This document shows, in pieces, positions 61,758 to 62,870 of a stretch of DNA of 64,000 nt. Both the position numbers and the translations under genes were made by a program. Under the pieces are notes generated by a model. The model searched no databases and was not told where the DNA came from. It saw only the letters and a program-made list of their open reading frames with translations. This stretch comes from Escherichia coli (GTDB taxonomy: Bacteria; Pseudomonadota; Gammaproteobacteria; Enterobacterales; Enterobacteriaceae): the NCBI RefSeq assembly GCF_001677475.2, contig NZ_CP015229.1; one strand, given 5' to 3'. The stretch's first letter is position 1. Each line of letters starts with the position of its first letter.

Positions 61758-62171
61758 TTAAAGAATTTCACGGCAGCTAATCAGGGTATAAGATGTATCA
61801 CCTTTTTTAACATCAAATATAGGAGCGCCATCTACAGAATGCAGATATTTGATGTAGGATTTACCATCTTCGGAACCATAATATTCTTCTTTCTCGTTCT
61901 TATCTTCTTTCAGTTTCGGGCTTTTGATTGTTCTATCAAATACCGGATCGTTGAAAGCAAATTGACTATTATCATCATTCACGCGAACTTTCACACCGAT
62001 AAAGCCACGGTATTTTCCAGACGGTGCATGATAATAACGGTCGCCATCACTCAGGTAGCGTGTATCATCTCCTTTATGTTCGAAGTAGGAATTACACACA
62101 TAATAGGTATTAGCATTAGCAGTACCAACCAAACCCATAGCAAGAACGATACCAGCGATAATCTTTTTCAT
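61758..62171 (-). CDS. secreted/periplasmic small protein (superinfection-exclusion candidate)
   Basis: 137 aa with Sec signal peptide MKKIIAGIVLAMGLVGTANA; AGAGG SD. Confidence 0.55.
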   Translation of the reverse strand: MKKIIAGIVLAMGLVGTANANTYYVCNSYFEHKGDDTRYLSDGDRYYHAPSGKYRGFIGVKVRVNDDNSQFAFNDPVFDRTIKSPKLKEDKNEKEEYYGSEDGKSYIKYLHSVDGAPIFDVKKGDTSYTLISCREIL

Positions 62172-62216
62172 AGTAGAATTTCCTCTTGTTATTTGAATTA
62201 CGATATATTTATATCG

Positions 62217-62342
62217 TTAAAAGTTGATGCTGATTACCAGACCAAACACAACCGCACCAATCAAATCAATCCAGTTAATACACAATCCGCTATATTCTTT
62301 CTTGAATGTCTTAGATGAAATGCCATCATGAAATTGTTTCAT
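62217..62342 (-). CDS. 41-aa membrane peptide
   Basis: MKQFHDGISSKTFKKEYSGLCINWIDLIGAVVFGLVISINF; GGGGTGA SD-like sequence 3 nt upstream; not in the ORF track. Confidence 0.3.
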   Translation of the reverse strand: MKQFHDGISSKTFKKEYSGLCINWIDLIGAVVFGLVISINF

Positions 62343-62483
62343 TGCTCACCCCATACTAACGACAAGATAAGAAAGGCTGATCATAGTTGTGAGACTACCT
62401 CCCACGAATGAGATAAAAGCTAACATGTTTGATTCTCCAGTTTAAAAAGCGGTGGGAATTGCACCCACCAAATTAGAAATTAA

Positions 62484-62870
62484 TTAAGCGCGAACGATGG
62501 TCAGAGTATCCAGCAAACCTTTTTCGTATAATTCGAAACACGTTTTATATTGCTCAATCTTCCAACCGTAGCGGGTGATCTTATTCAGTAGAACAATCGC
62601 GCTACTTTCATCCAGATATTGCCCCTGCTTACCGATTACATAAGTCTCACGATTCAGCTTTAACTTACGGAAACCTTTAACACCTAATTCCTTAGCCACC
62701 GCTTTAATCTCTTTAATCTCACCTTCTGCGGCTACATATTCAGCGTCGATAATCTCAGGTGATGATCTCAGTGCTACCAGAACTAAGGCCATTGCTTCTT
62801 CTTCGGTACGAGCAACACCAGCTTTCTCGAAAGTCATCTCACCAAATTTACGAATCATGATATTGAACAT
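62484..62870 (-). CDS. hypothetical protein (att-proximal cargo)
   Basis: 128 aa from MFNIMIRKFGEMTFEK after an AGGA SD; strongly optimised codons. Confidence 0.5.
   Translation of the reverse strand: MFNIMIRKFGEMTFEKAGVARTEEEAMALVLVALRSSPEIIDAEYVAAEGEIKEIKAVAKELGVKGFRKLKLNRETYVIGKQGQYLDESSAIVLLNKITRYGWKIEQYKTCFELYEKGLLDTLTIVRA

Follow-up and report, generated by a model that had tools for sequence, protein, structure and literature searches.

Four small genes beside the attachment site of a codB prophage in Escherichia coli: a conserved module, an exchangeable cargo gene and a candidate promoter split by integration

The position next to the integrase gene (int) and attachment (att) site of a prophage commonly carries cargo, and small genes found there raise the question of whether they serve the lysogen or belong to the early, circular stage of the phage. 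This question arises at the right end of a ~23-kb prophage of ~40% G+C that interrupts codB in a 64,000-nucleotide stretch of Escherichia coli DNA (contig NZ_CP015229.1), the whole of which is referred to here as the window. The window is an E. coli-type chromosomal segment with the gene run betA, yah, prp, codB and codA. The 5' part of codB stops near 39836 and its 3' part restarts at 62919; a 4-bp core, GGCA, is common to both junctions (attL core, 39833-39836; attR core, 62919-62922), and joining the flanks at this shared core yields an uninterrupted codB sequence. Four small open reading frames (ORFs) occupy the right end of the prophage, between a large serine integrase (60012-61694, minus strand; 560 aa from its ATG, with Pfam Resolvase, Recombinase and Zn_ribbon_recom domains) and the codB junction. 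Judging from sequence comparison, we lean towards reading them as an att-proximal leftward operon that would be specific to the circular state, with a promoter split by integration and insulation from int.

A conserved module and an exchangeable slot

Three of these ORFs had been put forward in an original prediction as candidate exclusion or defence genes, and they are present as described there: ORFs of 137 aa (61758-62171), 41 aa (62217-62342; p41) and 128 aa (62484-62870; F0), all on the minus strand, with the recombinase on one side and the codB junction on the other. Each is preceded by a Shine-Dalgarno (SD)-like sequence, and the ATG start of F0 falls within a 135-aa ORF that opens with TTG. 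The fourth ORF, absent from that prediction, encodes an all-hydrophobic peptide of 26 aa (p26; 62346-62426, minus strand) and is nearly contiguous with p41. Comparison of the four genes with their Salmonella orthologues gave a pS of 0.70-0.90, at which synonymous sites are saturated, and a pN of 0.22-0.45; length differences in p41 are in-frame indels, and the length of p26 stays at exactly 26 codons although identity is down to 35-38%. Because pN lies far below saturated pS, the indels of p41 stay in frame and the codon number of p26 is kept, the four ORFs are taken to be genuine coding genes; by this comparison all are under purifying selection and are not chance ORFs.

For the comparison of gene order, ORFs were clustered after 25 loci had been oriented: 21 prophage contigs from IMG/VR, three E. 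coli genomes and the window itself. Most relatives of the prophage are inserted in hicB, and those in Salmonella in ycdX. The order att-(F7)-F0-p26-p41-(variable slot)-int holds across the loci. F0, p41 and the integrase occur in all 25 and p26 in 24, and an optional 90-aa gene between att and F0 (phrog_6147) is found in 15. The variable slot holds a 137-139-aa protein in 11 of the 25 loci and, in 13, an 81-aa protein that has its signal peptide (MKKIIAG.VLA.GLVG.ANA) in common with the former and a mature part unrelated to it; an additional 113-aa membrane or coiled-coil protein is present in four loci, and the slot is empty in one. The Salmonella ycdX-type relatives have the same order, and p41 is present in all of them; F0, p26 and p41 are joined there by overlaps (ATGA or TAATG), the start and stop of p26 overlapping the neighbouring genes, and their slot contains either a 136-aa homologue of the cargo protein or a 350-aa homing-endonuclease-like protein (phrog_681).

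Two conserved elements border the slot. Its downstream border is a strong intrinsic terminator at the boundary between the cargo gene and int (61714-61743, minus strand), with an 11-bp stem (-21.6 kcal/mol, z = -4.07) followed by GUUUUUGUUU; this hairpin is conserved in the Salmonella relatives. Its loop holds a perfect TATAAT with TTTAAT 17 nt upstream, and the hairpin may double as a weak int promoter. The upstream border, between p41 and the cargo gene, is an AT-rich perfect palindrome, ACGATATA-TT-TATATCGT (62200-62217), which is conserved in Salmonella loci carrying unrelated cargo and could be a protein-binding site or a cassette-exchange boundary.

The earlier description of the genes as accessory cargo divides along these lines: it holds for the 137-aa gene, which is replaced among relatives between conserved borders, and fails for F0, p26 and p41. 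Since these three are near-universal, keep the same order, are translationally coupled and also occur in the Salmonella relatives, they are a core phage module. Comparison of the loci establishes both this module and the status of the 137-aa gene as exchangeable cargo; a genuine hot-spot slot here lies next to a conserved core, all within 1.1 kb.

A reading of the genes as lysogen-expressed morons must be weighed against this arrangement. On that reading they would serve in anti-phage defence, lysogenic conversion or superinfection exclusion, and the envelope would be where the membrane peptide and the secreted protein act. Known morons and exclusion genes near int or att include lambda bor and lom, HK97 gp15, phi80 Cor and T5 Llp. 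The 137-aa gene is like them in being small, envelope-directed and exchangeable, with its own terminator, in a slot of high turnover; among its replacements are genes with the same signal peptide, and the left end of relatives carries other envelope-related cargo, annotated as LprI-family. It differs from them in having neither sequence nor confident structural kinship and no recognised promoter of its own, and three of the four genes do not vary. Variable presence among syntenic relatives, expected of a moron, is seen for the 137-aa gene and not for F0, p26 or p41; as for independent expression signals, the strong terminator is present, and on the gene strand a consensus scan with a threshold of 9/12 detected no promoter ahead of either p26 or the 137-aa gene.

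Database searches count against the moron reading. Pfam, NCBIfam, PADLOC and PHROGs yielded no informative family for the small ORFs, the sole match being phrog_14908, a family of unknown function, to the C-terminal domain of F0; in PADLOC-DB the 137-aa, 41-aa and 128-aa proteins all remained without a match at E <= 1. No sequence or fold homologue of named superinfection-exclusion proteins (Cor, Llp, Sie, Imm and others) was found through Pfam, PHROG, phage tblastn or BFVD. The statement in the original prediction that none of the products resembles structural proteins is borne out, and its defence or exclusion identity is not: no such function is assignable to these genes. Taken together with the promoter and domain evidence below, lysogen-expressed exclusion or defence is unlikely, and what likelihood it has attaches essentially to the 137-aa protein alone, for which envelope-directed exclusion is conceivable at best.

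A promoter-like site in the reconstructed attP

Because the crossover lies only ~50 nt from the F0 ATG, the prophage leaves no room for an F0 promoter. The phage attachment site (attP) was reconstructed by joining the prophage ends at the shared core and was scanned for sigma-70 consensus sites at a threshold of at least 9/12. On the gene strand the reconstructed attP reads ggtaTTGACCtatgtggTGCCtaacaTATCATtccaaccacattaagtttgaacgcAGGAatacagacaATG; its only site at or above the threshold is a 10/12 match, TTGACC-16-TATCAT, with the crossover inside the spacer. The -35 hexamer (TTGACC, GGTCAA on the plus strand) is supplied by the left arm (39844-39849, minus strand) and the -10 hexamer (TATCAT, ATGATA on the plus strand) by the right arm (62908-62913, minus strand), 38 nt upstream of the F0 ATG. 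The two hexamers stand on either side of the crossover and come, in the circular form only, to a spacing within the 16-18 nt expected of a junction promoter; the same scan found no site of at least 9/12 on the F0 strand of attL, attR or attB. For a 10/12 site over a given junction on a given strand in this element, the probability is ~0.002-0.004.

The hexamers recur across att types, in all relatives whose arms could be inspected. A related lysogen at the same codB site, 39EVA, whose core is GGTAA, carries TTGACC-17-TATCAT, and the hicB-type elements of PI7 and 2014EL-1346-6 carry TTGACT-17-TATCAT. The right arm of hicB-type ETEC1738 has TATAAT, a variant hicB left arm has TTTACA, a ycdX-type left arm has TTGACT, and two Salmonella right arms of the ycdX type have TATCAT and TATTAT. 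Twelve distinct right arms conform to TAT[C/A/T]AT at a constant offset from the core, keeping T1, A2, T3, A5 and T6, and differ in their flanks. Outside the hexamers the codB and hicB arms are dissimilar, and the codB-type integrase is 71% identical to the hicB-type enzyme and 70% identical to the ycdX-type enzyme. At the level of sequence, then, a promoter-like site occurs only in the reconstructed attP, with hexamers conserved across att types, and this is good evidence of its kind for a promoter that would exist only in the circular genome. It also tells against lysogen expression of these genes, since the only recognisable promoter for them spans attP and is split in the prophage.

In the proposed operon, the conserved module of F0, p26 and p41 would be followed by the exchangeable slot just before the strong terminator. 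A sigma-70 promoter within attP would draw its -35 from the left arm and its -10 from the right, and the crossover would fall in its spacer; integration would part the hexamers by the whole length of the prophage and turn the operon off, and circularisation, on infection or after excision, would rebuild the promoter. F0 would be transcribed first. Behind it lies a weak-to-moderate terminator-like hairpin (62450-62470, minus strand; a 7-bp GC stem followed by GCUUUUU), which would let part of the transcription reach p26, p41 and the cargo gene; this hairpin is absent in the Salmonella relatives, where the genes overlap. The strong terminator would halt transcription ahead of int, which may have a weak promoter of its own. 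A further terminator-like hairpin at the left end of the prophage (39880-39902, minus strand; a 9-bp stem followed by UUUUUU, -12.8 kcal/mol) ends a 101-aa gene (39922-40227), is conserved in hicB- and ycdX-type relatives and comes to lie just before attP in the circular form; it would keep transcripts of the variable left-end gene from running into attP. The products would then be early proteins of the circular state, not conversion or defence factors made in the lysogen. What we infer here is that the promoter is active, that transcription reads through and that the genes are silent in the lysogen, together with all biochemical functions.

A second reading holds that the attP hexamers are a by-product of integrase recognition with no transcriptional role, and that the genes use unrecognised promoters or are barely expressed. 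Half-sites in dyad are expected of a serine integrase attP, and in the reconstructed attP the half-sites form an imperfect dyad with the hexamers inside it; attP sites are also AT-rich. The asymmetry of the dyad, on the other hand, falls exactly at the -35, present only on the left, and the -10, present only on the right. The -10 varies at position 4 only, and the -35 variants TTGACC, TTGACT and TTTACA each match the consensus at 5/6 positions. Strand, spacing and distance (a leader of ~30 nt with an SD sequence) are, moreover, right for a first gene that would otherwise lack room for a promoter. On balance, the by-product reading appears somewhat unlikely.

Several points nevertheless weigh against an operon driven by a split promoter. 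The hexamers sit within integrase-binding half-sites, and integrase recognition could explain part of their conservation; the att types share ancestry and are not independent trials. The window copy has a 16-nt spacer in an IS-damaged element (IS, insertion sequence) and may no longer excise. An exact junction search among IMG/VR and metagenome contigs found no excised or circular attP junction, and 11 metagenome matches to the left-end hairpin are integrated copies or unrelated sequence, none of them a circular form. The hairpin behind F0 may stop most transcription, leaving p26, p41 and the cargo gene without a recognised promoter, and the consensus scan may have missed a promoter that is weak or departs from the consensus yet works in the lysogen.

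Several known systems make expression depend on integration state. In circularised IS elements, a strong junction promoter (Pjunc of IS911, with counterparts in IS2, IS30 and IS21) drives the transposase and is lost on integration. These promoters share the design, with a -35 from one end and a -10 from the other joined only in the circle; they belong to DDE-transposase IS elements, whereas the present site lies in the arms of a serine-integrase attP, in a prophage, ahead of small non-recombinase genes that are terminator-insulated from int. Lambda sib acts post-transcriptionally through an RNase III site, and in mycobacteriophage integration-dependent immunity a degradation tag on the repressor is truncated. 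Both resemble the present case in that integration separates a regulatory element or splits a gene, so that expression differs between prophage and free genome, but neither splits a promoter. To our knowledge, no phage attP has been described as a split promoter. Integrative and conjugative elements (ICEs) have state-dependent integrase promoters, Pcirc of ICEclc and P3'end of ICEKp1 (PMC13023037). Here too, att-adjacent expression differs between the integrated and the excised element, and circularisation places far-end sequence upstream; theirs, however, is a complete far-end promoter reading across attP into int, with tyrosine recombinases at tRNA genes, whereas in the prophage it is the promoter that would be cut in two, and int is not its obvious target. 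A search of open-access papers found no case of a promoter bisected within a serine-integrase phage attP. The present case would differ from these systems in having a promoter bisected in such an attP that drives small non-recombinase genes and is insulated from int.

If the split promoter is real, a temperate phage would silence early genes by the recombination event itself, a promoter-level addition to the integration-state sensors exemplified by sib, integration-dependent immunity and the ICE and IS junction promoters. Position beside int and att alone would then not make a gene lysogen-expressed cargo. More tentatively, and with considerable doubt, attP may double as a sigma-70 promoter in such a way that integration is the off-switch of an early operon and integrase and RNA polymerase compete for the same ~50 bp. 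Such competition would couple the decision to integrate directly to early transcription and would be a natural counterpart of the integrase-controlled promoter switches of synthetic biology.

The products of the four genes

F0 (62484-62870) consists of a variable N-terminal half and a conserved basic C-terminal domain of ~75 aa, the region matched by phrog_14908; in the Salmonella relatives the protein is reduced to this domain alone. In an AlphaFold model of limited overall confidence the N-terminal half is poor, and residues 50-128 form, with good confidence (predicted local distance difference test, pLDDT, ~83), a small alpha/beta domain with only generic fold matches; a search of PDB sequences found no match for F0. 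An exhaustive profile search of 1.84 billion proteins recovered 37 representative clusters of the domain, mostly as stand-alone proteins of 76-91 residues. Some relatives are named 'beta/alpha barrel domain-containing' or '3-dehydroquinate dehydratase', names that are spurious and reflect a chance N-terminal similarity to amidohydrolase fragments; such amidohydrolase-like fragments also contaminated the F0 profile. The description of F0 as a protein of optimised codons is only weakly borne out: its fraction of optimal codons (Fop) is 0.59, against 0.57 for the 137-aa gene, 0.43 for int and 0.73 for the capsid gene.

Proteins with the F0 domain are present in 57 genomes of the virulent Krischvirus (RB49/Phi1-like, T4-like), where their genes lie among small early ORFs next to a DNA methyltransferase gene and alt, and in further phage contigs within arrays of small early genes. 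In a plasmid-like phage, the F0-domain gene comes first behind an operator-overlapped promoter, TTGAAA-17-TATTAT, within the palindrome TTTGAATTTTT...AAAAATTCAAA; this combination of an operator-overlapped promoter with an F0-domain first gene occurs in unrelated phage contigs. Membership of early-gene clusters in virulent phages argues against a lysogen-expressed role for F0.

The position of F0, which adjoins att in 25/25 loci as a protein of 128 or 145 aa, could also suggest that it assists the serine integrase, as its recombination directionality factor (RDF) or in some other accessory role. Serine-integrase RDFs are small proteins without kinship to one another, F0 is small, always beside attP and near int, and its basic C-terminal domain has a weak helix-extended-helix (Rho_N-like) motif. 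No integrase, though, is adjacent to F0-domain genes in Krischvirus or in the other phage contigs with context; the domain and the integrase do not consistently co-occur, which speaks for an early gene and against an RDF. A promoter formed only after excision could not start excision, and the N-terminal half of F0 is dispensable in the Salmonella relatives. A directionality factor is thus very improbable.

The two peptides encoded after F0 are short and hydrophobic. The sequence of p26 is ATGGGGTGAgcaATG, with no charged residues. p41 has an invariant N-terminus, MKQFHDGISSKTFKK, and a C-terminal hydrophobic stretch (residues 25-39; Kyte-Doolittle (KD) score 2.51), from which it looks membrane-anchored, in keeping with its earlier description as membrane-like. 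Its homologues form only 10 clusters among 5.8 billion proteins, and PGAP annotates it in one genome. Their size and hydrophobicity would fit a type I toxin or a holin/antiholin-like lysis pair, with the secreted protein as a lysis accessory, and the 113-aa occupant of the slot weakly matches an Rz-like spanin family (E = 0.0024). There is, on the opposing side, no Rfam family (E <= 1) and no antisense RNA signature; both peptides have SD sequences and are translationally coupled in an operon, the endolysin cluster of intact relatives lies on the other strand upstream of int, and p26 is uncharged. A toxin or lysis pair is accordingly a distant prospect, and p26 and p41 are an uncharacterised small-protein family. 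Together with the F0 domain shared with virulent T4-like phages, the pair offers a testable prediction on the timing of expression.

The 137-aa protein (61758-62171) begins MKKIIAGIVLAMGLVGTANA|N, with a basic n-region, a hydrophobic core (residues 4-18, KD 2.33) and an A-x-A site; by these features it looks secreted, as its earlier description as having a clean Sec signal peptide would have it. It is predicted to be a small all-beta periplasmic protein with a conserved pair of cysteines, Cys26 and Cys133. The family comprises only five homologue clusters among 5.8 billion proteins, and tblastn found no match in 50,697 phage records, a further point against the moron reading. The AlphaFold model is all-beta and of low confidence (pLDDT 63), with generic barrel matches only; its BFVD matches are weak (template modelling score, TM, <= 0.54) and lead to uncharacterised proteins or lipoproteins. 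Assignment as an MliC/PliC lysozyme inhibitor (PF09864) was rejected: there is no Pfam MliC match, unrelated barrels score equally well or better, and the model has the low confidence just given. The absence of a Pfam MliC match likewise sets the protein apart from the periplasmic lysozyme inhibitors MliC, PliC, PhiA and ACP.

An invariant core of the 137-aa protein, VKVRVNDDNSQFAFNDPVFDKTI (residues 60-82, window 61935-62003), is identical at 12/23 positions to residues 64-86 of E. coli ExbD. The similarity is marginal, with a profile E of 0.27 against PDB sequences and 25 bits in pairwise BLASTP. An ExbD/TolR periplasmic domain was rejected, as the match is local to 23 residues and Pfam ExbD is not matched. 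The TonB D-box binds ExbD residues 127-134 (PMC10907165). The similar segment, 64-86, misses this TonB-binding edge, and the simplest mechanism for an ExbD decoy is lost; the ExbD-like core might still hint at interference with the TonB system.

The surrounding prophage and chromosome

The prophage encodes small and large terminase subunits, a portal, a protease-capsid fusion, a major tail protein and a tail fibre. The tail-fibre ORF (975 aa, window 55347-58274) is interrupted by an IS3-family insertion at 58329-59482, with orfA at 58329-58613 and orfB at 58670-59482. In 39EVA, an intact relative of ~36 kb at the same site has tail tube, tape-measure-sized, tail-tip and endolysin genes. The window prophage is without these tail and lysis genes and, because they are missing, is judged defective: it is an IS-damaged, defective temperate siphovirus-like element. 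In practical terms little follows for the window itself: it carries an IS-damaged element to which no defence or exclusion function is assignable.

The region was found in 57 of 5,426 complete E. coli genomes, at <=95% identity, and in none of the deposited phage genomes. A literature search found no description of this prophage family or of its integration at hicB, codB or ycdX. hicB, in which most relatives insert, encodes the antitoxin of the toxin-antitoxin pair hicAB; in at least one genome its partner hicA has been left whole.

The tail-fibre ORF is ~80% identical in DNA over ~2 kb to distal long tail fibre (gp37-like) genes of T4-like phages. For both the F0 C-terminal domain and the distal tail fibre, the nearest phage relatives are virulent T-even-type phages, which suggests gene flow between these and the temperate element.

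The left end of the prophage is a second variable slot. In the window it holds the 101-aa ORF noted above (39922-40227, minus strand), in 39EVA nothing, and in hicB-type relatives a ~260-aa protein annotated as an LprI-family lysozyme inhibitor. A 328-aa acidic, coiled-coil-rich ORF (42060-43046, minus strand) has by far the highest Fop of the element, 0.85; it has no PHROG match, and relatives conserve it under the annotation hypothetical or coiled-coil. Past int, a 129-aa ORF (59549-59938, plus strand) matches only the phrog_681 endonuclease family's C-terminal end and looks like an endonuclease remnant beside the IS. Elsewhere in the window, the betT frame stops at 5841, beside a 353-aa transposase-like ORF (5996-7057, minus strand), and a betT-like C-terminal fragment follows at 7153-7587; betT looks to have been disrupted by an IS insertion.

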